Shown piece by piece: positions 7,319 to 59,740 of a stretch of 64,000 bases of DNA (within the stretch, counting starts at the first letter, position 1; each line of letters begins with the position of its first letter). Below the pieces are notes generated by a model. It had not been told where the DNA came from, made no database searches, and saw nothing but the letters and a program-made list of their open reading frames with translations. The stretch comes from Clostridia bacterium (lineage in GTDB: Bacteria; Bacillota; Clostridia; Oscillospirales; CAG-272): contig JAFTOT010000087.1 of the NCBI GenBank assembly GCA_017463665.1, positions 5,871 through 69,870 of the forward strand, given 5' to 3'. The position numbers and the translations under genes are program-made.

Positions 7319-8207
7319 GCCGACTGCTCCTAATTCGTTTGATATTCTTTGTTGTCTTTACGATCATATAAACCGCCATAGTAATAACGATGATACTCAC
7401 ACCCGCACCCGTCGCGGCGATCATAATACGCTGATTTTCGGGCGCCATGTCTTTACCGAATTGGGAGAACATTGCCGTTTCGAGAGAAAGCATGGAAACG
7501 AGTGCCGCTGAAAAAGTGATGATCTTGGTCACGGTCATAACAGGGCTGTTATATTTACGATACTTGCAGAGATTGATAATTGCGTTTGTGGTGATATAAA
7601 ACGTGTATGCCGCCATCACATAGATCAGCATACCGTGATATGCAAAGCCTTTGTTCTGATACAGGATCATGAGCACCGCGCCGGACAGAACAAAGTTGAC
7701 CGTCAAGAGGATGCAGGAACACAGTCTTGCGCTTTTCAGCTCTGCGACTTTGTTCTTGCCGATTCCGGTTCTGCGGACATAGCGGACCAGCAAAAACCGC
7801 ATGATCGACAGGATCGCATAGTATCCCGCCAAGATCATAAACCACATGGAACGGGATGACAGGAAGGACAGCACGTTGGTTCCGACGTACAGCAAATTGA
7901 TCGCCAACGATGCATACAGCGAGACATGCGTTCGAAACGCTGCGTCCGTCATATAGCGGTTTCCAAGCGGATTGTCGTAAATCTTCTGCTTGATCTGCCG
8001 ATACCGCTTCGGCAAAACCATCGCACAGAATACCGTAACCACGCAAACGGTGTAAAATGCAACGACATATACGGCATAGGCGATCGGAGATTCGCTGCCG
8101 ATTTTGATCAAAGCGAGAGGAACCGCGACGGCGCTGATGCCGATGAGGAGGATCATTACAAAGATCGGTGGGAAAATAAGCTTTTTTCCGATTTTCTTCC
8201 AATCCAT
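7308..8207 (-). CDS. Polytopic integral membrane protein, unknown function
   Basis: 299 aa with many hydrophobic helices. Start lies 1 nt after the kinase stop and the gene overlaps the next by 11 nt. Confidence 0.65.
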   Translation of the reverse strand: MDWKKIGKKLIFPPIFVMILLIGISAVAVPLALIKIGSESPIAYAVYVVAFYTVCVVTVFCAMVLPKRYRQIKQKIYDNPLGNRYMTDAAFRTHVSLYASLAINLLYVGTNVLSFLSSRSMWFMILAGYYAILSIMRFLLVRYVRRTGIGKNKVAELKSARLCSCILLTVNFVLSGAVLMILYQNKGFAYHGMLIYVMAAYTFYITTNAIINLCKYRKYNSPVMTVTKIITFSAALVSMLSLETAMFSQFGKDMAPENQRIMIAATGAGVSIIVITMAVYMIVKTTKNIKRIRSSRHGK

Positions 8208-22494: not shown

Positions 22495-22715
22495 CAGAAC
22501 TAAATAAGCACACAGAGTGTCGGGCGGGCCGCGTAAGGCTCGCTCGGTGAAAAGGGAACGTGGTGAGAATCCACGACGATACCAGTCGCTGTATGCATCC
22601 GAATGTTTTTGTACTCGTCGGCGAAAGCCGGTCATTGGGAAACTGAGAAGGCAGGGTATAAAAACGCAAGGCTATGCGCCTTATAGGATGTGAGTCAAAA
22701 GACCTGCTCTGATGT
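22495..22715 (+). ncRNA. Cobalamin (B12) riboswitch aptamer
   Basis: Conserved core readable: GGTGAAAAGGGAACGTGGTGAGAATCCACGAC...ACCAGTCGCTGTA, plus a B12-box-like GAGTCAAAAGACCTGCTC at 22690-22707. Confidence 0.8.
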
Positions 22716-22839
22716 TGCTCCGTCCGTGTATTTACATAGGAGCAATAGTTTTGTTTGGCACTATCCATTTCTCAAAAACGGAATGTGGATAGGCTTTGTT
22801 GCGTTGCCATGCAAAATGTGACAGTCACAGGAAAACTCT

Positions 22840-22881: not shown

Positions 22882-22965
22882 CTGCGTAATTTTTTGGAGG
22901 TGAGCTTGCAAGCAATCACTGCCCGAACGGGAAAAAGCAAAATACAACATAATAAGGAGCAAAAG

Positions 22966-25900
22966 ATGAAAGCAAAAAGAATTCTAAGCCTGCTGCTCGT
23001 AGTTGTCCTGGTATTGGCAATGCTTCCGACAGCGGTATTTGCGAATGATGAAACAGCGATACAAATAGCATCGGCTGCTGATCTTCCGACAGAGATCAGC
23101 GCGGGCAGCACGTATGAGCTGACCGCCGATATAACGCTCGCAAGCGGTCAGCAAATTGAGACGCTGGCGGGCACGCTCGATGGCAAGGGACATACCGTCA
23201 CGCTGGCGGACAAGCCATTAGCGAATACCGTGACGGGTACGATCCAAAATTTGGGCGTGCAGGGAACCGACACAGTGACCTTGTCCGGTGTTTCCGGCAG
23301 TATGGCGGTGACCTTGTCCGGTACGATACAAAACTGCTATTCTCTTGTTAATATGACGACCTCGGGCTGGGATGATATCGGCGGTCTTGTTGGAACACTT
23401 TCCGGCGGTAAGATCTATAACAGCTATTACGCAGGAACGAATAGCGCAATGTTCGCTGACGGTTTGGTAGGATCTGCTACCGGCGGTGAGATCGCAAACA
23501 GTTACTATACGGTCGGCTTTAGCGCTATCGGAATGGGTGGCAGCAAGGTAACACAAACCAATGTTGCCAAAATGAGCGACATGACCGGCATTGCCGCCGT
23601 AGAAGCACTGAATACGGATATTTCGCCAATCGGATATATCTGGGCACAGGATACCGAAAGCACAAATAGCGGATTCCCGATCTTGACGGAAGATACAGGC
23701 GATACATCGGTCAACAAAACAGCTCTGGAAGCGAAAATTACAGATGCAAAAGCGTTGCCCCAAGAAGCTTACACAACGGAAACGTGGACGGCATTGACGA
23801 ACGCACTTGACAGCGCCGAAGATGTTTGGGGAAAAGACGATGCAACGCAATCGGAAGTAAATTCCGCGCTCAGCGCGCTGGAAGCGGCGATCAACGCTCT
23901 CGAAAAGAAAAAGCCTGTTGAACCTGTAAGTTCGGACGGATACACGGTCAAGCATATCACAACACAGGCAGAGCTGGAAGCGATCGGTGCAGGCAACACA
24001 GATACATACTACATTCTGGATAACGATATCACATTCGACGGATGGTATATGAGTTTTGCTACGTTTAACGGCGTTTTTGACGGTAACGGCAAAACGATCA
24101 CCTTCCAAAACGACTATACCGGATTGTTCAAGAACATCGGCAGCAACGGTGTGGTGCAGAACGTTCATTTTGCAGGAGCCTTAAAATCCAGTGCAGACTA
24201 CGGTGCTTGTGCCCAAGAGGTACAGGGTGCGGTCATCAACTGCTATACCGAAGTTGCAGGCGGCAGTGCCAGCGGATTTGCCAAGCGGCTAAACGGCGGC
24301 ATCCTCTCCAATTGCTATTCGATCAGTGAAGCGACCGACGGTGCGATCATCGAGCAGACCGAAACGCCGGACGGCACACCGTATACCGGCACGCTCCGCA
24401 ATGTATATTGGAGAAGCGACCTTAGCCAGCCTGTCGATCTGACCAAGCTTACAACAGTCGGCGAGGTAAAAGCGCTCGACGCATCGGCGATGAAGAGCCT
24501 TGATTTTGTTGCTGTTCTCGATGCAAACAAAGGTATGTACGGAATCGCATGGGGACAAAGCAGCAGCGGCTATCCGTATTTCGGTGAAGATCAGACATAT
24601 GTTCCCGAAGAGGAAAACAAGGTTTCGTTATCGGAAAATAAAACCGCGATCGCATTTACAGCGGAACGAACACAGGCGACAACTGTAATTGAAGATCAGG
24701 ATCTTCAAATTGACATCCATACCGCATTAAACGGTATAGCCGGTCTCTTTTCTCTGCCGGAATATGCACTGCAGGAGGGAGAAAGGATCGAATGGAGTGC
24801 ATCGCAGCAGTCGCCTGCCGATGTTGCTTCGGTCGGCAGTGAATATCCGTATCTCAGTGTAGAAAAAGAGGGCGTACTGGTTGTAAGTGCAACCTTGGTA
24901 AAAGCGGACAGCAGTACCGAGGTATTGGCTTGCACAAAGGTAACGATTCGATCCAATGCAATTGCGGCTATCCGGCTGTATCTTGCAGAATATGAAGATA
25001 CCGAAAACGGCGAGGAGATCATAGACGGTAAGGCAACCGTTTCCGGTTCGGAGAGCATGCGCATTCTGGTAAAAGCTCTGTATACGGACCAATCGTCGTA
25101 TCAGACCGTTTCCGAAAGTGACTTTACATTTGAGTTGTCCGATCCCGACGGTATTGTAAAACACAGCGAGGGAAGCAGCGCGTTCAGCTTCCGTGCACCC
25201 GGCACTGCTACGATGACTGTCACCCATAAGACCGACAGCACGCTTACCGCCGATGTCGCATTGACTTCTGCATATGTGCCTGTAACCGCTGTTGTCCCGG
25301 GCGTTTCCGGGACGGTAGAGCTTCACGGCAGAAACGGCAACAGTGCAAGCGGCGAGGACTTTTTGCCCGACTATGCAAACGTCGTTGTCACCCCCGCGAA
25401 TGCAAGCTATGCCGATTCTTATACGATCACCGGCAGCGATCCTTCGGTTGCAGAATATGTGACCAGCATGGTCTATGGCTATGTTCCCTACAAGGCGGGT
25501 ACTGTAACGTATACTGCCACCATAAACGATAACGGAACGGTCGTTTCGGGTGACTCTGCCGTTACGTATGTTTATAAAAATCCGCTGAAGAATGTTACGG
25601 TCGAAAAAGATTCCATTTCCATGACAGTCGGTGACACAACTTCGGCAGGTCTGCTGTTCGAGGGAACCCTCACGGACGGGCACGAAGTAACGGAGACGGG
25701 AATGCACTGGAGCTTCAGCACGGACGGAATCGTATCCGTCTCCCGCGGCAGCGGTGCATGGAAACGCGATACAGGGGCTCCGGATGATGGTTCTTATTTC
25801 CTCAGCAGTGCGTATACGATCCGCGCTTTGTCTGCCGGTACGGTAACCGTAACGGGTACACCTGTTGATACGACAGGCGGCGCACAGCCGATAAGCTTTA

Positions 25901-28713
25901 CCGTAACCGTGAGCGCCGGAGAAGAGAAGGCACCGGATATTTATAAGATCATCAGTGAGGGTATTGCAACCTCTGAAAAATATCTTCGTGAGCAGCTTAC
26001 CGAACTGCATGCCGACAGCGGTGTTTCCTACGGCTTTGAATGGTATATTACAGCGCTTCTTCGCGCAGGCAAGGACATTGACGATGATATTCTTGATGCA
26101 TATTATGAAGCCGTAGTTGCCGAGGTTAAAACATGGACCGCCGATGTGAAGCCTACGGATGCAGAACGTACCGCCTTGGCACTGACGATCATGGGAAAAG
26201 ACATCACCAATGTTGACGGTGTAGATCTTACGGCATGGATCTATAACAGCGTGAAACTGGCGGACGGATCCAATGAGCTGGCGTATGCGCTTCTCGCATT
26301 GGACGCAGCCGATGCGGCGATTCCCGAAACGGCTGCATGGGATAGGGAAGAGATGATCACCGAGCTGCTCAAATTCCAATCGGCAGACGGCGGCTTTGGT
26401 CTGCATGACAATGCCAAGGGCGATGTGGATATGACCGCCATCTGCCTGCAGGCATTGGCTCCCTATCAGACGGACGAGACCGTTGCGGCATCCGTTGCAA
26501 AGGCGCTGGCGTACCTCAAGGATGCAATTTCCTCTGACTATGATTATGCCGATAATTCCAACTCCACAGCACAGGTCCTTCTGGCATTGGCTGCTCTTAA
26601 AATAGATGTTACTGCCTCCGATAACGGATTCGGCGGCGCGTATTACAACATCATAACGGCTCTTGAGGCATATCGCAATGCGGACGGAAACGGTTATCTC
26701 TATGAGGATAAAGTAAACTCCATGGCTACCGTGCAGGTCATGCAGGCTTACGATGCATACAGAAAGGCACATAAAGAAAGTATTTCTTATTGGGACTTCA
26801 CTGTGGCAGGTGAGGCGTATGATGATGCAAATACAGGAAACGGTTCCTCCTCCGATAACAAAGCGGCGGATCCCGCCATCGTCTATGTAACGATCGCATC
26901 GGACGGAACGATCGTTACGGATAAGGACGGAGGCTATATGGCGCAGGTTCCCGTAACCGTAACCGACCGCGATAAAAACGGCGTTCTCACCGTGGATGAA
27001 ACGCTGTATGCCGCGCATGAGACCCATTATCAAGGCGGCGCAGATGCAGGTTACAGTTCTTATACCGGTGCATACGGTCTGTCTTTGGCGATCCTTTGGG
27101 GCAAAGGCACCGCGGGAACCTCTGCAACAGCAGGGTACTGGCTGAACAATGTCAGCTGCTGGAGTTTGGCAGATGCAGTGCAAGACGGCGATCATCTCAC
27201 CGCATTTAACTATTATGATGCCGTTTATTGGAGCGATGCCTATGCCTATTTTACCGCGAACGAAGTATCTGTTACTGCCGGTAATTCTGTCAATTTGCAG
27301 TTGCGCTATCTCAGCGGTTATGACGCAGACAACGGTTATGCTCCCATCTTTTCCGCATACTCCGGTGCGAATGTTGTATTCCTCGGCAGCAACAATAGTA
27401 TGCAGAAAACATTGACCACTGATGCGGACGGTAATGTGCGCATCAGCTTTTCGGGCGCGGCAAGCACCGGCACATACTACGTGATGGCGTATGCGGATGA
27501 CGGTTCTCTTGTACCCGCTGTCTGCAAGATCTGTGTGACCGCTGCAAGCTCCGGCGGCGCAGGCAGCGGCGATGATGACAGCTTTACCGTTTATATACGG
27601 GTCGCCGATCCCAAGGGAAAAACGTATCTGTCTAAAAAAGCATATAAAGTAGAGGACGGCGATTCGGTATATGACCTTCTGGAGAAAACGGGATTGGATA
27701 TCGAGATAACCAGAAGTGCCTATGGTGTCTATATCAATGCTATCGAAGGTCTTGCGGAATTTGACGAAGGTGCAGAAAGCGGCTGGATGTACCGCGTAAA
27801 CAAGAAGTTCCCGAATTATTCGGCTTCTCTGTATACGCTCTCCAAAGGGGATTATGTAGAATGGCTTTATACAAGAGATCTCGGTGCAGACATCGGCGAT
27901 AATTCTGACAGAAGTTCTTTGTCGGATGCTTCGACCGGAACGTACACGGTTAAGTTTGAAACGAACGGCGGCAGCGCGGTAAGCAGTCAAAAGATCGACA
28001 AGAACGATACCGCAACCGAGCCCGATGCGCCGACGAAGGACGGTTATACGTTCGGCGGCTGGTACACCGACAAGGATCTGACGGATGCGTATGATTTTGA
28101 CACCAAGGTGAAAAAGAGCTTTACGCTGTATGCCAAGTGGACAGCCAAAGCTGCATTCGGCGAAAATACGTTCAGCGACATCGGCAAAAACGACTGGTAC
28201 TACACTTACGTGCAGTACGTATACGAAAACGGACTGATGCAGGGCACGGACAATGGCTTTGCACCCGACAGCAACATGACAAGGGCAATGCTCGTCACCG
28301 TACTGTACAGACTGGACGGCGCAGAGGCACGTGAGGATGATTGCAGATTTACGGATGTTGCAGAGGGCGAGTGGTATGCGGATGCGGTCGCATGGGCAGA
28401 TGCAAACGGTATCGTGGTCGGTATCAGTGATACGCTTTTTGCTCCGAATGAAAACATCACGCGTGAGCAGATGGCGGCTGTTATCTATCGCTATGCAAAG
28501 TTCAAGGGGTATGATGTCAGCGACGAAGCGGAACTTTCTGCGTTCGCAGACACAGATGCCATCAGCGATTGGGCGCTCGACTCGCTTACATGGGCAAATG
28601 CAAAAGAGCTTGTAAAAGGCACAACCGACACGACCGTATCGCCGAAAGGCACGGCTACACGTGCGCAGGTTGCGGCTATCCTCATGCGCTTTTGCGAGAA
28701 TATAGCAAAATAA
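22966..28713 (+). CDS. Giant SLH-anchored cell-surface protein (1915 aa) containing alpha/alpha-toroid plus DUF4430 (transcobalamin-like) modules
   Basis: AAGGAG RBS and signal peptide MKAKRILSLLLVVVLVLAMLPTAVFA. Alpha/alpha-toroid-like region about 25930-26800. DUF4430 signature ESGWMYRVNKKFPNYSASLYTLSKGDYVEWLYTRDLG (about 27580-27885), plus a divergent copy (GYWLNN...DGDHLTAFNY, about 26863-27225). Three C-terminal SLH repeats (about 28150-28710). Confidence 0.85.
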   Translation: MKAKRILSLLLVVVLVLAMLPTAVFANDETAIQIASAADLPTEISAGSTYELTADITLASGQQIETLAGTLDGKGHTVTLADKPLANTVTGTIQNLGVQGTDTVTLSGVSGSMAVTLSGTIQNCYSLVNMTTSGWDDIGGLVGTLSGGKIYNSYYAGTNSAMFADGLVGSATGGEIANSYYTVGFSAIGMGGSKVTQTNVAKMSDMTGIAAVEALNTDISPIGYIWAQDTESTNSGFPILTEDTGDTSVNKTALEAKITDAKALPQEAYTTETWTALTNALDSAEDVWGKDDATQSEVNSALSALEAAINALEKKKPVEPVSSDGYTVKHITTQAELEAIGAGNTDTYYILDNDITFDGWYMSFATFNGVFDGNGKTITFQNDYTGLFKNIGSNGVVQNVHFAGALKSSADYGACAQEVQGAVINCYTEVAGGSASGFAKRLNGGILSNCYSISEATDGAIIEQTETPDGTPYTGTLRNVYWRSDLSQPVDLTKLTTVGEVKALDASAMKSLDFVAVLDANKGMYGIAWGQSSSGYPYFGEDQTYVPEEENKVSLSENKTAIAFTAERTQATTVIEDQDLQIDIHTALNGIAGLFSLPEYALQEGERIEWSASQQSPADVASVGSEYPYLSVEKEGVLVVSATLVKADSSTEVLACTKVTIRSNAIAAIRLYLAEYEDTENGEEIIDGKATVSGSESMRILVKALYTDQSSYQTVSESDFTFELSDPDGIVKHSEGSSAFSFRAPGTATMTVTHKTDSTLTADVALTSAYVPVTAVVPGVSGTVELHGRNGNSASGEDFLPDYANVVVTPANASYADSYTITGSDPSVAEYVTSMVYGYVPYKAGTVTYTATINDNGTVVSGDSAVTYVYKNPLKNVTVEKDSISMTVGDTTSAGLLFEGTLTDGHEVTETGMHWSFSTDGIVSVSRGSGAWKRDTGAPDDGSYFLSSAYTIRALSAGTVTVTGTPVDTTGGAQPISFTVTVSAGEEKAPDIYKIISEGIATSEKYLREQLTELHADSGVSYGFEWYITALLRAGKDIDDDILDAYYEAVVAEVKTWTADVKPTDAERTALALTIMGKDITNVDGVDLTAWIYNSVKLADGSNELAYALLALDAADAAIPETAAWDREEMITELLKFQSADGGFGLHDNAKGDVDMTAICLQALAPYQTDETVAASVAKALAYLKDAISSDYDYADNSNSTAQVLLALAALKIDVTASDNGFGGAYYNIITALEAYRNADGNGYLYEDKVNSMATVQVMQAYDAYRKAHKESISYWDFTVAGEAYDDANTGNGSSSDNKAADPAIVYVTIASDGTIVTDKDGGYMAQVPVTVTDRDKNGVLTVDETLYAAHETHYQGGADAGYSSYTGAYGLSLAILWGKGTAGTSATAGYWLNNVSCWSLADAVQDGDHLTAFNYYDAVYWSDAYAYFTANEVSVTAGNSVNLQLRYLSGYDADNGYAPIFSAYSGANVVFLGSNNSMQKTLTTDADGNVRISFSGAASTGTYYVMAYADDGSLVPAVCKICVTAASSGGAGSGDDDSFTVYIRVADPKGKTYLSKKAYKVEDGDSVYDLLEKTGLDIEITRSAYGVYINAIEGLAEFDEGAESGWMYRVNKKFPNYSASLYTLSKGDYVEWLYTRDLGADIGDNSDRSSLSDASTGTYTVKFETNGGSAVSSQKIDKNDTATEPDAPTKDGYTFGGWYTDKDLTDAYDFDTKVKKSFTLYAKWTAKAAFGENTFSDIGKNDWYYTYVQYVYENGLMQGTDNGFAPDSNMTRAMLVTVLYRLDGAEAREDDCRFTDVAEGEWYADAVAWADANGIVVGISDTLFAPNENITREQMAAVIYRYAKFKGYDVSDEAELSAFADTDAISDWALDSLTWANAKELVKGTTDTTVSPKGTATRAQVAAILMRFCENIAK

Positions 28714-47135: not shown

Positions 47136-47155
47136 AGCTTCCTCACTTTTTAAAT

Positions 47156-48595
47156 TTAAGTTTTTAAATTTAAGATGCTTACCGCATCCTTGATGGTCTT
47201 CTCCATAGCTTCCTTGCCGTACTTATCGACCTCAGCCTTGTTCTTTTCGCCGTGCGTCAGACAGCCTGCGCCGCCGATACAGCCGCCGATACAAGCCATA
47301 CCCTCGATAAAGTTGGCATCCAGCACGTTCTTGCTCTTCTTGAGCAGTGCCAGTCTGCATTCTTCGATACCGTCGCAGACTGCGGCTTTGAGCTGGAAGT
47401 CGTTGAATTCAAATTCCTTGACACCTTCTGCAACTGCGTCGGTCAGACCGCCGCTGCGGGCAAAAATTCTTCCATAATAAGAAGCGTTGTCGAGCACGCC
47501 CTCGTCAAGCATGGTGATGTCGATGCCGCGGCTGTCGAACAGCGCCTGCAGCTCCTCAAAGGTCAGTACCGTATCGACATACGGCTTGACGGTTTCGCGC
47601 TGCAGCTCCATCTTCTTTGCGGTGCAGGGACCGATGAAGATGACGCGTGCATTCGGATCCTGCTTTTTGAGGTATGCGGCGAGCGCGGTCATCGGAGAGG
47701 GATTGTGCGAAATGTAATCTACAAGATCCGGGAAGTTCTTGTGGATGTAGTTGACGAATGCAGGGCAGCAGGAGCTGGTCAGGAAGCCTTTTTCGACAAG
47801 CTCTTTGGTTTCCTCAACGGCTACCATGTCTGCGCCGAGCGCAGCCTCGATCGTGGTGTAGAAGCCGAGCTCCTTGAGACCGGTGATGACCTGGCCGAGT
47901 TTTGCATAGGCAAATTGGCTGGAGATCGAGGGGGCGGCGATGGCATATACCTTGTATTCGGAGTTTGCCTTGCTGCCTTTCAGAATGTTGATGGCATCCA
48001 CGATAAAGGACTTATCGGTGATGGCGCCCCACGGGCACTGATATACGCAGGCACCGCAGGAGATGCACTTATCGTAGTCGATCTTTGCGGCGTTGTCTTC
48101 GTTGATCTGGATCGCCTTGACTTTGCAGGCGTTCTGGCAGGGGCGCTTGCGGTTGGCGATGGCTGCAAAGGGGCAGACCTTCGCGCACTGACCGCACTCT
48201 ACGCACTTGGTCTTGTCGATGTGCGCAACGTGGTTGTGGTCAAAGGAGATTGCGCCGCGCTTGCAGACGTCCTCACAGCGGTGTGCAAGGCAGCCGCGGC
48301 AGGAGTCGGTGACCTCGTATCCCGCTGCGGGGCACTCGTCGCAGGCAATGTCGATGACCTGGATCACGTTCGGGTTGTCCTTGTCACCGCCGACCGCGAG
48401 CTTTACGCGCTCGCCGAGGATGGCACGCTCTTTGTATACGCAGCAGCGCATGGTCGGTTCTTTACCGGGGACGATCTTCTTCGGGATCTCCACCAGATTT
48501 TCCAGCAGAGTGCCGTCCCATGCGTGTCTTGCGACCTCGCGCAGGACCTTATATTTCAAGTGCTGTACTTTGGTATCAAACTTTCTTGTCTTCAT
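47156..48595 (-). CDS. [FeFe] hydrogenase-like protein, monomeric group-B-type with N-terminal Fe-S clusters
   Basis: ATGA-coupled start at 48595. H-cluster motifs SSCCPAF, GPCTAKKME and EGMACIGGCIGGAGC. Ferredoxin motifs KCVECGQCAKVCP and KCISCGACVYQCP. Confidence 0.8.
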   Translation of the reverse strand: MKTRKFDTKVQHLKYKVLREVARHAWDGTLLENLVEIPKKIVPGKEPTMRCCVYKERAILGERVKLAVGGDKDNPNVIQVIDIACDECPAAGYEVTDSCRGCLAHRCEDVCKRGAISFDHNHVAHIDKTKCVECGQCAKVCPFAAIANRKRPCQNACKVKAIQINEDNAAKIDYDKCISCGACVYQCPWGAITDKSFIVDAINILKGSKANSEYKVYAIAAPSISSQFAYAKLGQVITGLKELGFYTTIEAALGADMVAVEETKELVEKGFLTSSCCPAFVNYIHKNFPDLVDYISHNPSPMTALAAYLKKQDPNARVIFIGPCTAKKMELQRETVKPYVDTVLTFEELQALFDSRGIDITMLDEGVLDNASYYGRIFARSGGLTDAVAEGVKEFEFNDFQLKAAVCDGIEECRLALLKKSKNVLDANFIEGMACIGGCIGGAGCLTHGEKNKAEVDKYGKEAMEKTIKDAVSILNLKT

Positions 48596-49213: not shown

Positions 49214-49321
49214 CTACTAACGGAAAAATAATTGCAGGAGAAACCCACAAAATTCAAAGAAAACCGTCCCGCCTGTTTTGGTACAAGTGGCGGTTTTTGC
49301 TTTTGTGCGGTCGCTTTGGGG

Positions 49322-49577
49322 GATATGATGTTCCCGCGCAAAGCGCGTAAACAGCGATATAAATCCCTGACGGGATTTTCGATATGCCCTGCGGGCGCGA
49401 TATGTCCTGCGGACTCGATATACCTGCGGGCGCGATATGTCCTGCGGACTCGATATACCTGCGGGCGCGAGGGATTTATATCATATCGCAAGCACGCAGT
49501 GCTTATATCGAAACCGAGCATCGCGAGGTTATATCGTGCGGCTCTGCCGCATATCGCCTTAGCGGCTCTGCCGCTAA
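49322..49577. repeat. Mini-hairpin array 1: CGATAT/ATATCG linkers separating tri-loop GC hairpins, including a perfect 35-bp tandem duplication (49398-49432 / 49433-49467)
   Basis: CGATAT at 49355, 49380, 49398, 49416, 49433 and 49451 (plus GGATAT at 49321). Inverted ATATCG at 49483, 49505, 49531 and 49551. Hairpins include GCCC-TGC-GGGC, GTCC-TGC-GGAC, AAGCAC-GCA-GTGCTT and AGCGGC-TCT-GCCGCT. Confidence 0.85.
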
Positions 49578-49591
49578 ACATTCCTTTTCGT

Positions 49592-49620
49592 TTGCATTCA
49601 GGATTGCTTTGTGCTATACT
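49592..49620 (+). promoter_or_regulatory. Sigma-70 promoter of the radical SAM gene
   Basis: TTGCAT, 17-nt spacer, TATACT. Confidence 0.55.
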
Positions 49621-49648: not shown

Positions 49649-50491
49649 ATGAAACGCTTTCAAAAAATCTATCTCGAGATCTCCAATATCTGCAATCTGC
49701 GCTGTGCGTTCTGCCCGGGAACGAAGCGGCAGCCGCGGGCGCTGACCGAGGGGGAATTTGGCTTTCTGCTCGGGCGGCTGCGCCCCTTTACCGATTATCT
49801 GTATTTTCATCTGATGGGCGAGCCGCTCTGTCATCCGCAGCTCGGCGCGTTCCTCCGAATGGCGCACGATGCCGGATTTAAGGTGATCCTCACCACCAAC
49901 GGCACGCTGCTGCAGAAGCAGCAGGAAATGCTGCTGTGTGCGCCGGCGTTACATAAGGTGAATATTTCGCTGCATGCGTTTGAAGCGAATGACCTCGATG
50001 TGCCGTTTGCTTCGTACCTTGACCGCTGCTTTGCTTTCGGCAAGGCGGCAGAGGGACAAAAGCTGGTCATCTACCGCCTGTGGAACCACGGCGGCGCGGA
50101 TGCAAGGAACGCGGAGATCCTTGCCGCCATGGAGCGATATTTCCCAAAGCCGTGGGCAGACGATTGGCGCGGCGCACGTATCGGCGAGCGCGTTTATCTG
50201 GATTACGGCGACAAATTCGATTGGCCCGATCTTTCCGCACCCGAGGGCGGGGGAGACGTCGCTTGCTACGGGCTGCGCGATCAGATCGGCGTGCTCGCCG
50301 ACGGCACGGTCGTACCATGCTGTCTGGATCACGACGGCGATATCGCACTCGGAAATCTGTTTGAAGAAAGCCTTGCGGACATCCTGTCGTCACCGCGTGC
50401 AAAAGCGATCTGTGACGGCTTCGCAGACGGCAAAGCCGTCGAGCCGCTCTGCCGCCGCTGCGGCTACGCCTATGCACGGTTTGGAAAGTAA
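49649..50491 (+). CDS. Radical SAM / SPASM(twitch)-domain protein
   Basis: ISNICNLRCAFCPG (CX3CX2C) and a C-terminal Cys cluster VVPCCLDHDG...CRRCGY. ATG 49649 follows GGGGGA. The 5' extension from 49232 runs through the repeat array. Confidence 0.85.
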   Translation: MKRFQKIYLEISNICNLRCAFCPGTKRQPRALTEGEFGFLLGRLRPFTDYLYFHLMGEPLCHPQLGAFLRMAHDAGFKVILTTNGTLLQKQQEMLLCAPALHKVNISLHAFEANDLDVPFASYLDRCFAFGKAAEGQKLVIYRLWNHGGADARNAEILAAMERYFPKPWADDWRGARIGERVYLDYGDKFDWPDLSAPEGGGDVACYGLRDQIGVLADGTVVPCCLDHDGDIALGNLFEESLADILSSPRAKAICDGFADGKAVEPLCRRCGYAYARFGK

Positions 50492-52677: not shown

Positions 52678-52749
52678 GTGATTGACAACGCGCTGCGGAT
52701 GTTGTATACTGTATTTACAGATGTAAATTCATTACGACGGAGGTACGGG

Positions 52750-53685
52750 ATGAAAAAGCGGTTTCTTTTGCTCTGTATGCTTGCGTTCTTGCTTTGCGCC
52801 TGCGCGGTGGAGCCTGCGGAGACAACGACAGCGCCCGTGACAACGACAGTGCCCGTGACAACGGCAGTGCCCGTGACAACGACAGCGCCCGTGACAACGA
52901 CAGCGCCCGTGACAACGGCAGTGCCCGTGACAACGGCGGTGCCCATGACAACGACAGCGCCCGAAACAACGACAGCGCCCGAAACAACGACAGCGCCCGA
53001 AACAATGGCGGTGCCCGAAACGATGGCGGTGCCTGTGACAACGATCACCGATCCCTCTGCGATAGATATTGCTGTGCCGATCGATACATATGAGAGCGAT
53101 ACGTATACCGTGACCGAATACCGCAACAGCGATGACAGTGTGATCTACTGGACGGTCGTTACAAAAAGCATATTGCATTCGCAGGAGTTTCGCTATGATC
53201 GGGACGAAAACGCAGGACCGATTCCATCGGTCACTACGCTTGTTGCCGAAGCGGACATCAATTTTGACGGGCGAACGGACCTTTGCCTGTTTAAAGGGTA
53301 TTTCGGTGCGCAGGGAGCAAGACTGTATATCGGCTATCTGCAAAATGCCGACGGCACGTACACGCTCTGTGAAGGATTTGAAAATATCGCAGATCCGGCG
53401 CTCGATGCAGAGAATAAAGTGATCCTTTCCACCTCGAGAGAAAACGCAGCTCAACACCGATACGGCAAATATGCTTTTGCAGGCAATGCGGTAAAATGTA
53501 CGGATGCACTGATCTATACCGTCGGAGATGAAACCGTGGAGATGGACGGCGTTGTGTATTCGATCGCGTCCGACTCGCCCGACCGTGACCGTTTCCTCGG
53601 CGAGGGCGGTGAGTGGGAGCTCGAGGGCGAAAAGTGGTACAGCGGTCTCGGCGTCGTCCGCCAAAACAGTGTGTCGGATAAGTGA
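52750..53685 (+). CDS. Putative lipoprotein with Thr/Pro/Val hexapeptide repeat linker
   Basis: ATG 52750 follows GGAGG. Signal/lipobox-like MKKRFLLLCMLAFLLCAC. Twelve TT(T/A)(A/V)P(V/E) repeats, then a globular C-domain. Confidence 0.7.
   Translation: MKKRFLLLCMLAFLLCACAVEPAETTTAPVTTTVPVTTAVPVTTTAPVTTTAPVTTAVPVTTAVPMTTTAPETTTAPETTTAPETMAVPETMAVPVTTITDPSAIDIAVPIDTYESDTYTVTEYRNSDDSVIYWTVVTKSILHSQEFRYDRDENAGPIPSVTTLVAEADINFDGRTDLCLFKGYFGAQGARLYIGYLQNADGTYTLCEGFENIADPALDAENKVILSTSRENAAQHRYGKYAFAGNAVKCTDALIYTVGDETVEMDGVVYSIASDSPDRDRFLGEGGEWELEGEKWYSGLGVVRQNSVSDK
52822..53037 (+). repeat. 12 tandem 18-bp coding repeats (ACAACGACAGCGCCCGTG family)
   Basis: In-frame units encode TTTAPV/TTAVPV/TTTAPE/TMAVPE variants. 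The repeats also create long spurious ORFs in other frames and on the other strand. Confidence 0.9.
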
Positions 53686-55908: not shown

Positions 55909-56101
55909 AAATGGATTGTTTATGATACGAATGATTTGCGCGTACCGCGCATGAATTGACGGCTGTGCCGTCATGATTTGAATTGCAATCTCCTATGCGC
56001 CGCAGCGCAAATCATGCCGTAGGCAAATCATGAGCACACAGTGCTCAAATCATGCAATCCCTCGGATTGCAATTCATTGTTTACGCGCGTCGCGCGTAAA
56101 C
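55909..56101. repeat. Mini-hairpin array 2: CATGATTTG/CAAATCATG linkers separating tri-loop hairpins
   Basis: Left linkers AATGGATTG (55910), AATGATTTG (55930), CATGAATTG (55950), CATGATTTG (55972). Right linkers CAAATCATG x3 (56008, 56024, 56046) and CAATTCATTG (56069). Hairpins include CGCG-TAC-CGCG, ACGGC-TGT-GCCGT, TGCC-GTA-GGCA, AGCAC-ACA-GTGCT, CAATCC-CTC-GGATTG and GTTTACGCGC-GTC-GCGCGTAAAC. Confidence 0.85.
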
Positions 56102-56103
56102 TT

Positions 56104-57915
56104 TCATTTCTTCTCAGTGTAATACTGCGCTTGGGCGGTCCACAGCTCGTGGTATTTGCCGTTCACATCCGCAACGAGCTCGTCGTGCGTTCCGACTTGC
56201 ACGATGCTGCCATGATCGAACACGGCGATCTTGTCGCAGAAGCGGCAGGAGGACAGGCGGTGGCTGATGTAGATGGCGGTCTTGTCTCCGACGATGTCAT
56301 TGAACTTGGCATAGATCTCTGCCTCGGCGATGGGATCGAGCGCGGCGGTCGGCTCGTCCAGGATGATGAACGGTGCGTCCTTGTAGAGTGCGCGCGCCAG
56401 CGCAACCTTTTGCGCTTCGCCGCCCGAGAGGTTCACGCCGTCGGCATCAAAGTTTTTGTATAGCGGCGTGTCGAGCTTCTGCGGCATCTCCCGATACCGC
56501 TCGCCAAAGCCCACTTCTGCAAGGCAGCGTTCGGCTTTTTCGGCGTCCCACCGCTCGGCGGAAGCGACGTTGTTGCCGAGGGGCAGACCGAGCAGGCTGT
56601 AGTCCTGGAAGACGACCGAGAAAATGTCTAAATACTGACGGTAATCATACTTGCGGATGTTGAAATCATTCATCAGGATCTCGCCCTCGGTCGGATCGTA
56701 CAGGCGGCAAAGCAGTTTGATAAATGTGGTCTTGCCGCTGCCGTTCATGCCCACGACCGCCAGGCGCTCGCCCACCTTCAGGCTGAGGTTGATATTTTTG
56801 AGCGCGTAGGTGTCCGCACCCGCGTATTTGAAGCTGACATTTTTAAACTCGATGTCAAACTTCTTATCGCTGCGCTTTTCCACCGCAAGGCTGCCCTGGT
56901 ACATATCGTTTTGAATGTCGAAATAGTCGAGATACTGCTTTAAAAAAGGCTCATTATGCTTTGCTCGTCCCAATTGATTGAAAAGCGAGCAAATATTTTT
57001 AATCAACCTTCCAAGGTAACCCACATATTTGATCACACTGCCCACAGGGAAGGCGCCAAGCGTACAATATAGACAAACCAGCAAATATGTGCACATCTCG
57101 GAGAACTTTGTTAAAACAAATACCGGTGTTTCATAGAGAAAACTTTTGCGGTTGACCGCGGTAAATATACGCAAATGATCGCGGCTGTTTTTTTCCTCAA
57201 GCGGTGTAATAATTTCCTGTTGCCGGTAAATGCGACAGTCCATGCCGGACACTTTATACCCCTGTCCGATTCTGTTTTCGCCAAGCATATGTTCACTGAG
57301 GCTGTTCCAGTTGGCGGCATTCTTTTTGCTACTCTGTAACTGCATAACGACGGTGAGCACCACGAGAATAAAAAGCAAGACCAGTAAAACTGCGCCCATC
57401 AGGGGAAAGCGTACGCTTGCCATATTGCCGAGCATTTCGGTAAACAGAATACAGGAAAGCGAGATCTGCACGGCACAGTCCATGAGTTTTTCCACGGTAA
57501 AACGGAGCTGCTTTACTCCATGACTGTTGACCTGCGAATTCTGGCTGATCTTCCGCCGAAGCTGACGAATCTCGGGATTTTCCAGCTTGTCATAGTCAAG
57601 GGAAAGCGTTTTGCGGTTGAATGCCGCCGCCTCATTGTTGGCGAGGATCTGACGCTGTAGCTCCGTGATATATCCAAGAAGTGCCCCCACGATCCGCACA
57701 AATAGATTGCCAAACAAGGTAATGGCAACGAGCAGGAAGATCGCCTGTTTGTCCTTACCCGCATACAGCGCCGTGACGATCTCGGCGGACATCCAGAGAT
57801 TGAAGTAGGGAGAGATGCTTTGGAAGAGGATATGCAGGAATTTAAGGGGGAAATACTTTGGATTATACGCGCTGTACGTCCGAAAAGCGCGCATCGTGAT
57901 GTTTTCCTTACGCAT
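56104..57915 (-). CDS. ABC exporter, fused permease-ATPase (half transporter B)
   Basis: Six-TM-type N-domain, GMNGSGKTT, LSGGEAQKVALARAL, FIILDEPTAALD. Confidence 0.9.
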   Translation of the reverse strand: MRKENITMRAFRTYSAYNPKYFPLKFLHILFQSISPYFNLWMSAEIVTALYAGKDKQAIFLLVAITLFGNLFVRIVGALLGYITELQRQILANNEAAAFNRKTLSLDYDKLENPEIRQLRRKISQNSQVNSHGVKQLRFTVEKLMDCAVQISLSCILFTEMLGNMASVRFPLMGAVLLVLLFILVVLTVVMQLQSSKKNAANWNSLSEHMLGENRIGQGYKVSGMDCRIYRQQEIITPLEEKNSRDHLRIFTAVNRKSFLYETPVFVLTKFSEMCTYLLVCLYCTLGAFPVGSVIKYVGYLGRLIKNICSLFNQLGRAKHNEPFLKQYLDYFDIQNDMYQGSLAVEKRSDKKFDIEFKNVSFKYAGADTYALKNINLSLKVGERLAVVGMNGSGKTTFIKLLCRLYDPTEGEILMNDFNIRKYDYRQYLDIFSVVFQDYSLLGLPLGNNVASAERWDAEKAERCLAEVGFGERYREMPQKLDTPLYKNFDADGVNLSGGEAQKVALARALYKDAPFIILDEPTAALDPIAEAEIYAKFNDIVGDKTAIYISHRLSSCRFCDKIAVFDHGSIVQVGTHDELVADVNGKYHELWTAQAQYYTEKK

Positions 57916-59740
57916 GGATTTCTCCCTCCTTGTAGTATTTTGCCTGTACGCCGAACATATAGGCGTACTGTCCGTTTTTCGCCATCAATTCCTCGTGCGT
58001 GCCGCTCTCGGTGATGCTACCGTTTTCGAGCAGCAGAATGCGGTCACAGAAGCGCGTGGAGGCAAAGCGGTGCGAAATGTAGACCGAGGTCTTGCCCTCT
58101 GTCAGAGCGCGGTACTGCAGATACAGCTTGTTCTCGGCGATCGGATCGAGCGCGGCGGTCGGCTCGTCGAGGACGAGGATCGCGCCGTTTTTGTAAATGG
58201 CGCGCGCCAGGACCAGTTTTTGCATCTCGCCGCCCGAGAGGTCCACGCCGTCGTCATAGATGCCTTTCATCAAGTGCGTGTTGATGCCGTTTGGAAGGCT
58301 CTCGATCTTTTCATAGATGCCCGACGCCTGCATTGCGCGGATGGCATCCTCACGCGCTGTCGGGCGATCGAGATCCGCGCTCGCGACAAATTCAAACATC
58401 GTGAACGCCACAGGGGCGATCTGTTGGAATACAGCGGAGATCATCGAATAATATTCTTCGATATTGTATTCCTCGATCCGCTTACCGCCGACCAGGATCT
58501 CACCCTTTGTGGGCGTGTACATGCCGCAGATCAGCTTGATCAGCGTGGTCTTACCCGCGCCGTTCATACCCACGAGGGCAATGCTTTCGCCGCCCTCGAT
58601 CACAAGGTCGATGCCTTTCAGGGTGTAGTCCTCGGCGCCGTCATAGCGGTACCAGACGTCTTTCAGTTCGATCCTGACGGGTGCGGTCGGGAGTGCACAG
58701 CCCTCGCCGTGGTTAAACTTGTTCGGGTAGTCGAAAAACTCGCGATAGTATGCGATCTTTTCGGCGCGGGTGTTGAGCTTTGCCACGTCGCCGATGATGC
58801 CCTGCAAAAATCCGGCGATACTGCCTACAAGTCCGAAATAGAAGACAAAATCACCGACGGTCATGCCACCCTCAAGCAAAATGCCGATCAGCACGATATA
58901 GGCAACGCCGTTTTGGATCAAGGTCATCAGCCCTGCCAAGATCGATGCCCACAGTCCACGCAGGTGTACCCGATGATTCCACATCAAAATGTACGCCTGA
59001 TAGTCGCGCATCATTTTGTCAAGCAACGGTTCCAGACCGTAGAGCTTGATGTCCTTTGCTTTGGCAAAATCACCGCCCAGCCTTTGCAGATAAACCTTTT
59101 TTCTGCCTTCTTCTTCCCACTTGTGTTTATTCTTTTCATGGTATACCGGCTGCCAACGTGTGGTGAAGTAGGAGAGCGCCGATGTTACGGCAACCACGAC
59201 AAAAATGGCAGGGTGTAAAGATACCAGCAAGGATGCATATGTAAAAATTCCCGTCAGATGAATGAGCGCAGCCGGAAGATCGCGCCATAAAAACTCAGGC
59301 GAACAGTTCCCGCCGTTTGCGTCCCGAAAGGCATAGCCGCGAAGTTCTTTGAAGTCCTTCTTTTCGGTATTCTCAAAGTCAGTCTCCGCGTTTTCAAAGG
59401 CTGCAAGTTCGGATTGATACACGAGTGACGGATAGTACTGCCTCGATAAGCATTGCACATCCACCCAGTGCCTGACTGTTTGCAGAGCAAGGATTCCCAA
59501 AAGAAGCGCGACGACAACAGCTGCGAGCTCCGAAAAGGGGGCACCGCTGCCAATGCGGTCAATCAGCACCTTTGAATAATAGGATTCGGCAAGCGGCAAT
59601 GCCACCGAAAACGGCACGCTCGCAAAGATAAAAAACACAAACCATTTATCCAGCCTCCACAGCTTGCGCATCGTCCAGCAAAGGCAACTGAATCTGCCGT
59701 ATTTTCGCTTTTCTTTTTTCTTTTTCATAAAAAATCTCAC
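57908..59740 (-). CDS. ABC exporter, fused permease-ATPase (half transporter A)
   Basis: GMNGAGKTT, LSGGEMQKLVLARAI, ILVLDEPTAALD. 8-nt overlap with the partner gene. Start is 59740 or 59728. Confidence 0.9.
   Translation of the reverse strand: MRFFMKKKKEKRKYGRFSCLCWTMRKLWRLDKWFVFFIFASVPFSVALPLAESYYSKVLIDRIGSGAPFSELAAVVVALLLGILALQTVRHWVDVQCLSRQYYPSLVYQSELAAFENAETDFENTEKKDFKELRGYAFRDANGGNCSPEFLWRDLPAALIHLTGIFTYASLLVSLHPAIFVVVAVTSALSYFTTRWQPVYHEKNKHKWEEEGRKKVYLQRLGGDFAKAKDIKLYGLEPLLDKMMRDYQAYILMWNHRVHLRGLWASILAGLMTLIQNGVAYIVLIGILLEGGMTVGDFVFYFGLVGSIAGFLQGIIGDVAKLNTRAEKIAYYREFFDYPNKFNHGEGCALPTAPVRIELKDVWYRYDGAEDYTLKGIDLVIEGGESIALVGMNGAGKTTLIKLICGMYTPTKGEILVGGKRIEEYNIEEYYSMISAVFQQIAPVAFTMFEFVASADLDRPTAREDAIRAMQASGIYEKIESLPNGINTHLMKGIYDDGVDLSGGEMQKLVLARAIYKNGAILVLDEPTAALDPIAENKLYLQYRALTEGKTSVYISHRFASTRFCDRILLLENGSITESGTHEELMAKNGQYAYMFGVQAKYYKEGEIHA

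Follow-up and report, generated by a model that had tools for sequence, protein, structure and literature searches.

Two orphan hairpin arrays in a Clostridia genome and their place in the Gut-1 family of modular non-coding elements

The stretch of DNA analysed here (the window, 64,000 nucleotides of contig JAFTOT010000087.1 from a Clostridia bacterium) contains two arrays of short GC-rich hairpins separated by constant linkers, which we call array 1 (49321-49577) and array 2 (55909-56101). Array 1 has on its left a minus-strand operon of the 2Fe-2S/[FeFe]-hydrogenase type and on its right a radical SAM/SPASM gene that begins with the ATG at 49649. Two divergent promoter-like sites proposed in the initial annotation were found again, TTGCAA-17-TAGAAT for the operon (49213-49185, minus strand) and TTTGCA-18-TATACT for the radical SAM gene (49591-49620, plus strand); both flank array 1 outside the element and face outward, with array 1 upstream of both. 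Array 2 is located between convergent genes, behind the 20-bp terminator of an alpha-amylase-family gene and abutting the stop codon of an ABC ATPase gene. The closest species in our genome collection, L009 (radical SAM proteins 89% identical in amino acids), retains both promoter sequences but lacks array 1, having about 50 nucleotides (nt) where the window has an array region of about 270 nt. Because L009 has both promoters and no array, array 1 is not an operator for the two promoters, and it probably has no effect on them. When the array centre was inspected by eye for promoters (divergent transcription), the -10-like matches seen were weak and inconsistent. A hairpin resembling a bidirectional terminator (AAAACCG..CCGCC / GGCGG..TTTTT, 49262-49300) lies immediately to the left of array 1 and is partly conserved in the array-less L009.

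For all arrays, the linker is denoted K and its reverse complement K', the first hairpin X, and the entry hairpin H0. Array 1, read on the plus strand, opens with GGATATGATGTTCCCG (49321-49336), which by our reading is left over from the 3' end of a RumA-type methyltransferase gene (..VDMFP..) and was apparently carried along with the array. The entry hairpin CGCGC-AAA-GCGCG follows at 49335-49347, where relatives have a larger variable hairpin or a terminator, and is followed by K1 (CGATAT, 49355-49360) and the X hairpin AAATCCC-TGAC-GGGATTT (49361-49378), whose stem is that of bona fide loci of the Rfam family Gut-1 and whose TGAC loop is common to several CGATAT-type arrays. The left half (49380-49469) consists of five units of K plus hairpin (GCCC/GTCC/ACC-TGC-GGGC/GGAC), which are the canonical three and two more from a 35-nt tandem duplication. 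The centre (49470-49482) carries a distal copy of X' and a partial K' (AGGGATTTATATC) and pairs with 49356-49368 in 13 of 13 positions across a gap of 101 nt that includes the duplication, a better match than the 12 of 13 first reported for these bracketing segments. Four K' linkers (ATATCG at 49483, 49505, 49531 and 49551) make up the right half (49483-49556) together with the hairpins AAGCAC-GCA-GTGCTT, the GA-bracketed AACC-GA-GC-ATC-GC-GA-GGTT (49512-49530) and TGCGGC-TCT-GCCGCA. The array ends with the terminal hairpin TTAGCGGC-TCT-GCCGCTAA (49559-49577), the loop of which is AAA in strain L001.

The linkers lie exactly where the initial annotation had listed them, with the plus-strand CGATAT copies at 49355, 49380, 49398, 49416, 49433 and 49451 and the ATATCG copies (CGATAT on the minus strand) as given above; this count of 6+4 is the canonical 4+4 plus the two-unit duplication. 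The listed hairpins were also recovered. A census of stems of at least 5 pairs returned CGCGC-AAA-GCGCG, AAATCCC-TGAC-GGGATTT, AAGCAC-GCA-GTGCTT, TGCGGC-TCT-GCCGCA and the terminal hairpin, and the 4-bp-stem units GCCC-TGC-GGGC and GTCC-TGC-GGAC were confirmed. The irregular unit AAACCGAGCATCGCGAGGTT folds as well, into the GA-bracketed hairpin, and is the local form of a conserved right-half unit of the family, stem-GA-GCGAAGC-GA-stem. The 35-nt tandem duplication is exact, positions 49388-49422 and 49423-49457 being 100% identical (Tandem Repeats Finder: period 35, 2.6 copies).

In the window there are 78 copies of CGATAT against 37.5 +/- 6.3 in dinucleotide shuffles, and 10 of the 78 are packed in 202 nt of array 1, with about one per 940 nt in the rest of the window (a hand count from the positions). 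A local clustering scan of 6- and 7-mers over the whole window flags only array 1, array 2 and one coding tandem repeat, and both strands of both arrays fold far better than shuffles (z of -4.7 for array 1 and -6.6 for array 2). Array 1 recurs in several independent metagenome assemblies (L001, L002, L003, L004, L089 and L090), and in two of these assemblies contigs break inside its tandem units. Since it is present in several independent assemblies, array 1 is not a misassembly; it is real, non-random and far beyond chance.

The sister array suspected at 55909-56101 was confirmed as real and as an object of the kind that array 1 represents. On the minus strand, the geometry of array 2 is that of the canonical element described below, with unrelated sequence. 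Its entry hairpin GTTTACGCGCG-TC-GCGCGTAAAC (56079-56101) stands directly behind the ABC gene stop at 56104, and is followed by K1 (ATGAATT) with the X hairpin GCAATCC-GAG-GGATTGC (56054-56077) and by a left half (55996-56053) with three ATGATTT linkers and the hairpins GAGCAC-TGT-GTGCTC, GCC-TAC-GGC and TGCGC-TGCG-GCGCA. The centre (55979-55990) pairs 12 of 12 with 56065-56076 across a gap of 74 nt, which is the canonical distance. The right half (55922-55979) has the K' linkers AAATCAT, AATTCAT, AAATCAT and a degenerate GTATCAT, and the hairpins GACGGC-ACA-GCCGTC and GCGCG-GTA-CGCGC. On the minus strand, the linkers number 4+4 in the window and 4+5 in strains L006 and L007.

At the gathering cutoff, Rfam gave no match at array 1 or array 2. 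In E-value mode, the Gut-1 model RF01706 (gathering cutoff 50 bits) matched 49352-49426 at 25.4 bits (E 0.005), below that cutoff. The consensus of RF01706 is three hairpins parted by GUGAAAU. The Gut-1 seed alignment with its flanks (Weinberg 2010, supplementary file 95) has the left-K/right-K' design: past the three modelled hairpins, the flanks show a centre and then 3-4 hairpins with the reverse-complemented linker between them. Viral contigs scanned for three GTGAAAT linkers yielded eight true arrays, and the seven submitted to Rfam (L104, L118, L165, L169, L179, L194 and L198) scored 62-79 bits for Gut-1. L118, with 77.5 bits, starts with AACGAAATAAATCCC-TTTC-GGGATTT GTGAAAT GCCC-TGC-GGGC GTGAAAT, and array 1 with AGCGATATAAATCCC-TGAC-GGGATTT TCGATAT GCCC-TGC-GGGC GCGATAT; by eye, 41 of the first 52 nt (79%) are identical, and the stems of both first hairpins are the same. 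A metagenome scan anchored on the first hairpin gave at least 120 loci and 110 distinct arrays, 26 of which bear the CGATAT linker of the window. A profile built from nine of these CGATAT-type arrays matches array 1 at 49354-49428 (E 3e-17) and 49416-49557 (E 4e-19), the match being split in two because of the extra tandem units, and has no other match in the window or in 80 loci from related species.

These comparisons show that array 1 is a divergent Gut-1 homologue in which all the linkers on both sides were changed in concert (GTGAAAT to CGATAT), and that it scores only 25.4 bits because they changed together. Array 2 has no match to the Gut-1 model at E<=10, and the CGATAT-subfamily profile (nhmmer) also misses it. 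The metagenomic array L256 combines a CGATAT left half with a AAATCATG/AATTCAT right half, and this hybrid links the linker types of the two arrays. It is well supported that array 2 represents a second subfamily (linker ATGATTT) of the family of array 1, on the minus strand. A scan of viral contigs for linkers of the array 2 type produced 48 loci and no hairpin arrays. The wider element family anticipated in the initial annotation is thus Rfam Gut-1 together with subfamilies that its model misses. It is also well supported that the Rfam model covers the left half of the family element. Our literature search found no paper on Gut-1 function, and a preprint on UG27 hairpin arrays proved unrelated.

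Counted from the first hairpin, most of the 110 arrays have linkers at offsets of 21, 39 and 59, followed by their reverse complements near 87, 116, 140 and 160. The canonical order is an entry hairpin, K1, the X hairpin, three K-plus-hairpin units, the centre (X' and a partial K') and four K'-plus-hairpin units, which gives four K and four K' when K1 is counted, the units of one half being mirror images of those of the other. At least three right-side ATTTCA copies are found in 53 of the 70 TGAAAT-type arrays and ATATCG in none; conversely, 18 of the 26 CGATAT-type arrays have at least three right-side ATATCG copies and none has ATTTCA. K and K' covary between subfamilies without exception. 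Covariation is also seen between the nucleotides just in front of K and just behind K', and 20 of 53 consensus pairs show compensatory changes. Furthermore, K1 and the left arm of the first hairpin are complementary to the distal copy in the centre, so that a covarying helix of 11-13 bp (10-13 bp in our definition of the extended element) is an alternative to the local X hairpin. This long-range helix is retained in six unrelated sequence versions with a gap of mostly 71-75 nt, and both arrays of the window have the K/K' halves and the helix (13 bp in array 1, 12 bp in array 2). A census of the 80 related-species loci (about 1.3 Mb), covering linker clusters, hairpins with flanking direct repeats and hairpin chains, found no comparable arrays; what it did find were loose clusters of GC hairpins and repeats of tRNA fragments. 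At L009 13305-13432 and L022 12064-12180, clusters of GC-rich hairpins that are unrelated to each other, have GCA, GCAA or TGA loops and lack constant linkers lie between convergent genes, and they may be a looser relative of the arrays. In L194 (minus strand, about 7330-7500), the right half of an array is flanked by a 21-nt direct repeat, CGCTRCGGCGGTGAGGAYTT, and L104 has the same left half without the right half, which suggests that the two halves can be separate modules.

Hairpin statistics were taken from 186 distinct inter-linker hairpins. Their pairs comprise 1003 Watson-Crick, five G.T and one A.C pairs and 19 other mismatches, which puts G.U-type pairs at 5 of 1028. Triloops (128) outnumber tetraloops (52), and the closing pair is 5'C-G3' in 169 of the 186. 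When read on the K' strand, the commonest loops are GAA (48), GCA (18), AAA (14) and GTA (12), with G as the first base in 69% and A as the last in 82%. Since this rule is the same in both halves, the units of the two sides are true mirror images. The loops of arrays 1 and 2 on the K' strand are mostly GCA, GTA and ACA, the exceptions being TCT, CTC and the H0 loops. C-GNA-G triloops form specially stable DNA mini-hairpins, and one conserved unit of the family contains d(GCGAAGC). Taken together, the scarcity of wobble pairs, the dominance of triloops and the mirror polarity argue that a constraint on folded single-stranded DNA is more likely than one on a single conventional RNA.

A gene of about 115 amino acids from the PF05635/TIGR02436 family (23S rRNA intervening-sequence protein, four-helix bundle; PDB relative 2RLD) is located downstream on the same strand in 21 of the 88 arrays with enough downstream sequence (about 24%). 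It starts 150-300 nt from the array start in 20 of the 21 and about 450 nt in one, and lies about 20-100 nt past the last linker in L211, L214, L217, L238, L251, L261, L262, L263, L269, L292, L297, L314, L324 and others. The protein cluster follows the linker type (12 of 12 for TGAAAT and 4 of 4 for CGATAT), and the L256 hybrid falls in a separate cluster. Among the 80 related-species loci there is a single PF05635-type gene, and tblastn found none in the 64-kb window, so that arrays 1 and 2 are both orphans, like about 76% of arrays. It is well supported that both, as orphans, belong to a single family of non-coding elements that are modular and dense in hairpins. To our knowledge, the only characterised member of this four-helix-bundle family is Avd, the accessory protein of diversity-generating retroelements (DGRs). 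The gene behind about a quarter of the arrays belongs to the same family as Avd; unlike in a DGR, no reverse transcriptase and no template or variable repeats occur near the arrays. PADLOC returned no defence-system match for the protein, and we found no published description of its link with the arrays. In L165 (13100-13400), L183 and L190, the gene is cut to 39-50 amino acids by an internal deletion joining ..LSTD to LYNRCG.., and appears to be a decaying copy.

Based on these results, we propose that arrays 1 and 2 are orphan Gut-1-type arrays that act as folded single-stranded nucleic acid in a linker-specific manner with a PF05635 partner, and we put the probability of this explanation as a whole at about 45%. 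The nucleic acid would more likely be DNA than RNA. The GC-rich palindromes would snap into mini-hairpins with C-GNA-G caps, leaving the AT-rich linkers exposed or K paired with K', and K1 with X could take as its pairing partner the adjacent X' or else the distal X' and K', giving two alternative folds. The constant linker would then be the specific recognition or pairing element, and the hairpins structural spacers free in sequence. The likeliest partner would be the Avd-like four-helix-bundle protein encoded just downstream in complete copies. Units may be gained or lost through misalignment between identical linkers; array 1, a member of the CGATAT subfamily, has gained two units by the 35-nt tandem duplication. 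A linker of the Chi type, or one read by a single factor, is ruled out, because the two arrays of one genome use different linkers. A more specific version, which we regard as doubtful, is that a Gut-1 array and its PF05635 gene form a previously unrecognised two-part module. Here a small Avd-like oligomer would recognise a programmable linker of 6-9 nt set between the DNA mini-hairpins of a folded single strand of DNA, linker and protein would evolve together, the module would spread to the flanks of tRNA genes and terminators with hairpin units added or dropped, and the orphans in the window would be non-autonomous copies.

Several points weigh against this explanation. The PF05635 gene is found beside only about a quarter of the arrays and nowhere in the window, and the correlation of protein clade with linker could be simple co-inheritance. 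We know of no PF05635 protein for which sequence-specific binding has been demonstrated. The GTGAAAT subfamily has a promoter-like site between array and gene and the CGATAT subfamily only about 20 nt, so that the relation of the array to the transcript is not uniform. A single-strand scaffold partnered with the four-helix-bundle protein is a best guess, and the birth of a new unit with a novel hairpin is not covered by the explanation. Stable GNRA-like tetraloops (GCAA, GAAA, GTAA) are also present, which leaves room for an RNA, and the Gut-1 motif was scored as likely RNA on covariation (Weinberg et al. 2010, Genome Biol 11:R31, PMC2864571).

Strains of the window's own species have identical flanks around the arrays and differences inside them. 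In array 1, L001 has ACC changed to GCCC, which makes the stem perfect, one A to G change, and the loops GCA and TCT changed to ACA and AAA. In array 2, L006 and L007 have one extra 24-nt unit after 55971, made of one linker CATGATTTG and a new hairpin GAGTGC-TAC-GCATTC. In a comparison by hand, the extra unit of L006 (GAATGC-GTA-GCACTC in the K' reading) differs from the existing GAGCAC-ACA-GTGCTC by seven transitions and no transversions, which hints, in this one case, at duplication followed by compensatory divergence. Hypermutation of the arrays is not shown by these data, because in the 12 kb compared the strain differences fall also in two recombination-like patches of single-nucleotide polymorphisms (SNPs) and in the coding repeat. 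The two patches, tight clusters of 4 and 12 strain SNPs in otherwise identical genes (48251-48338 and 58613-58745), look like short imported recombination tracts.

As for the location of the arrays, a same-strand tRNA gene lies 34-51 nt upstream (123 nt in two cases) of 30 of the 94 arrays with upstream sequence (about 32%), and eleven tRNA species are represented. Our terminator detector was too strict on the metagenomic loci (3 of 94), and its figure was not used. Behind tRNA-Leu, L028 has a seed hairpin alone, and the Gut-1 seed sequence BAAZ01000224 has a full array behind a tRNA with a near-identical 3' half. The motif GGATATGATGTTCCCG of array 1 is found also upstream of the related arrays L217 and L256, and by reading it forms the end of a RumA-type coding sequence in L256. 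Since it matches the RumA end and no RumA-type methyltransferase gene is present in the window, array 1 apparently arrived with a scrap of a former upstream gene. With respect to miniature inverted-repeat transposable elements (MITEs), which have terminal inverted repeats and a target-site duplication at sharp ends, the mirrored halves resemble inverted ends, comparison with the empty site in L009 showed no clear duplication, and array 1 carries its foreign flank. Tandem tRNA 3'-end fragments beside tRNA genes were seen in L073 (6340-6640) and L050 (5560-5870), with GC hairpins and one inverted copy of the same 10-mer lying among them in L073; they are probably scars of integrative elements, and the mechanism may be related to that of the arrays.

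Four other explanations were weighed against these results. A non-coding RNA, as which Rfam classifies Gut-1, with the array transcribed into tandem hairpins whose single-stranded linkers or K:K' rod would offer an RNA-binding protein (perhaps the four-helix-bundle one) a scaffold or sponge with many sites, is the one we would turn to next, and we still consider it unlikely. The covariation score of Weinberg 2010 (PMC2864571), the abundant compensatory changes and the GNRA-like tetraloops all speak for it. In modules of the CGATAT type, the downstream start codon follows the last K' after only about 20 nt, which means that the right half is in the 5' leader of the gene or bears its promoter, and Avd, the DGR relative of the protein, works with RNA. 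However, G.U-type pairs as rare as 5 of 1028 and triloops at 128 to 52 tetraloops are both unusual for selected RNA helices, and any single transcript would have one half in the less favourable loop orientation, since the halves are of opposite polarity. There is also no evident promoter upstream of K1, which directly follows a terminator or tRNA, and array 1 is upstream of both flanking promoters. It is rather unlikely, and a little more so, that the arrays are a miniature mobile element or gene-cassette site, with the mirrored halves as two ends or a folded recombination site and an unidentified enzyme moving the array, with or without the four-helix-bundle gene, preferably behind tRNA genes and terminators. 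Mobility would account for the dispersal over many unrelated loci, at times twice per contig, the presence of array 1 in the window and its absence from the sister species, the 30 of 94 arrays behind same-strand tRNA genes, the foreign-gene scrap at array 1, the 21-nt direct repeat that flanks the right half in L194, and the lone left half of L104. PF05635 genes have moreover been reported to sit as intruders within the intervening sequences of 23S rRNA and within cas operons. Yet the arrays have no associated transposase, integrase or HUH gene, neither a consistent target-site duplication nor sharp element ends were found, and the tRNA-Leu locus, with a seed hairpin or a full array depending on the species, looks like growth in place rather than insertion.

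The exactness of the 35-nt duplication, the one-unit difference between strains, the ACC to GCCC change that perfects a stem and the mere seven transitions between the extra L006 unit and an existing one are what would be expected from a functionless mutational by-product, in which a palindrome-prone spot grows by replication slippage and intrastrand template switching, the stems thereby being kept perfect. The slippage suggested in the initial annotation does describe how unit number changes, but slippage or template switching as the whole explanation is very improbable: over 100 arrays, among them six sequence versions unrelated to one another, have the 4+4 layout, the loop polarity, the closing pair and the long-range helix in common, the linkers are constant while the hairpins are wholly divergent, and a specific gene family is linked to the arrays. 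This family-wide conservation has already largely refuted the by-product reading. Least credible of all, and close to excluded, is the iteron-like operator or cruciform spacer coordinating two divergent promoters that had also been suggested. The position of array 1 between two conserved promoter-like sites and the regular spacing of its short repeats fit such an operator, but the sister species has both promoters and no array, array 2 is flanked by convergent genes, the linkers differ between two arrays of one genome, and most relatives have other surroundings (a tRNA gene on the upstream side, convergent genes on both sides, or the four-helix-bundle gene downstream).

Where the units come from was also considered. 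Transposon footprints, P-nucleotide scars, staggered-cut fill-in and snap-back synthesis are speculation, and none of them predicts direct linker repeats around unrelated palindromes. In the window and the 1.3 Mb of related loci, the longer array hairpin sequences have no copies outside arrays, and for those of up to 13 nt the near-matches are at chance level. The radical SAM gene has at its 3' end (50426-50455) a pair of neighbouring palindromic segments of coding sequence, GACGGCAAAGCCGTC and GCCGCTCTGCCGC, each of which differs by one mismatch from an array hairpin; as a source of hairpins, these segments (at 50426 and 50443) are probably a chance resemblance, because they are conserved coding sequence in L009.

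The arrays share features with several known systems. Like Gut-1 (RF01706), array 1 has short tandem hairpins parted by one constant linker (7 nt in Gut-1), an identical first hairpin stem (AAATCCC/GGGATTT) and second hairpin (GCCC-TGC-GGGC), and a similar centre, and the sequences are of gut Clostridia type. Unlike the Rfam entry, which models three left-half hairpins and is called an sRNA from uncultured human-gut organisms, the full element is about 190 nt long and mirror-symmetric (4 K + 4 K') with a long-range helix, its hosts include animal-gut Oscillospiraceae, and array 2 has the geometry alone in common with Gut-1. Repetitive extragenic palindromic (REP) sequences, with the mosaic elements (BIMEs) and REPINs that they form and their RAYT transposases, are likewise clustered GC-rich extragenic palindromes in alternating orientation with short conserved linkers, at gene ends and in varying copy number, and the joint evolution of linker and protein in the two-part module would resemble that of REP sequences and RAYTs. 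The initial annotation had already contrasted the arrays with the constant stems of REP elements. Throughout a genome, REP stems stay the same and bear a GTAG or CGTC tag, whereas in the arrays the stems are free and the linker is constant; we saw no GTAG tag and no RAYT link at the arrays. The initial annotation had also set the arrays apart from CRISPR, and rightly so, since the array repeats are 6-9 nt rather than at least about 23 nt, their 'spacers' are palindromic and the halves are inverted; the only match of a CRISPR direct-repeat model is at chance level. Integron attC sites are imperfect palindromes that are recognised by structure, fold as single-stranded DNA and are linked to small mobile open reading frames (ORFs). 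The arrays have no integrase and no R/L core sites and differ from attC sites in size and layout, so the likeness is a resemblance only. The terminal palindromes of Streptomyces linear replicons and the terminal hairpins of parvoviruses are also tightly packed mini-palindromes with 3-nt G-N-A loops closed by C-G, in which single-stranded DNA folds into multi-armed structures recognised by proteins. Those serve end replication at DNA ends, whereas the arrays are internal, intergenic and mirror-duplicated.

Since 2010, Rfam has listed Gut-1 as an orphan "sRNA from uncultured gut organisms". The locus in the window gives it identifiable hosts, namely animal-gut Oscillospiraceae close to "Faecousia", and shows that the Rfam model covers just part of a larger mirror-symmetric element. 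It also brings out linker subfamilies beyond the model, hairpin statistics that point to DNA rather than RNA, and a strong link with a four-helix-bundle protein family, and with these the old question of Gut-1 becomes directly testable. For annotation, such arrays should not be taken for promoter operators, CRISPRs or assembly errors.

Three other features of the window were recorded. The coding tandem repeat flagged by the clustering scan (52821-53044, in the ORF at 52678-53685) has an 18-nt period, GACAACGACAGCGCCCGT, in about 10-12 copies, and varies among strains, with a product of 287 or 311 amino acids and repeat-level substitutions. An exact 14-nt tandem duplication (TTTTTAAATTTAAG x2, 47147-47174) occupies the short space that separates two genes of the minus strand. 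At 22500-22725 on the plus strand, a cobalamin riboswitch (RF00174, 63 bits) is located upstream of an ORF of 1939 amino acids (22894-28713).

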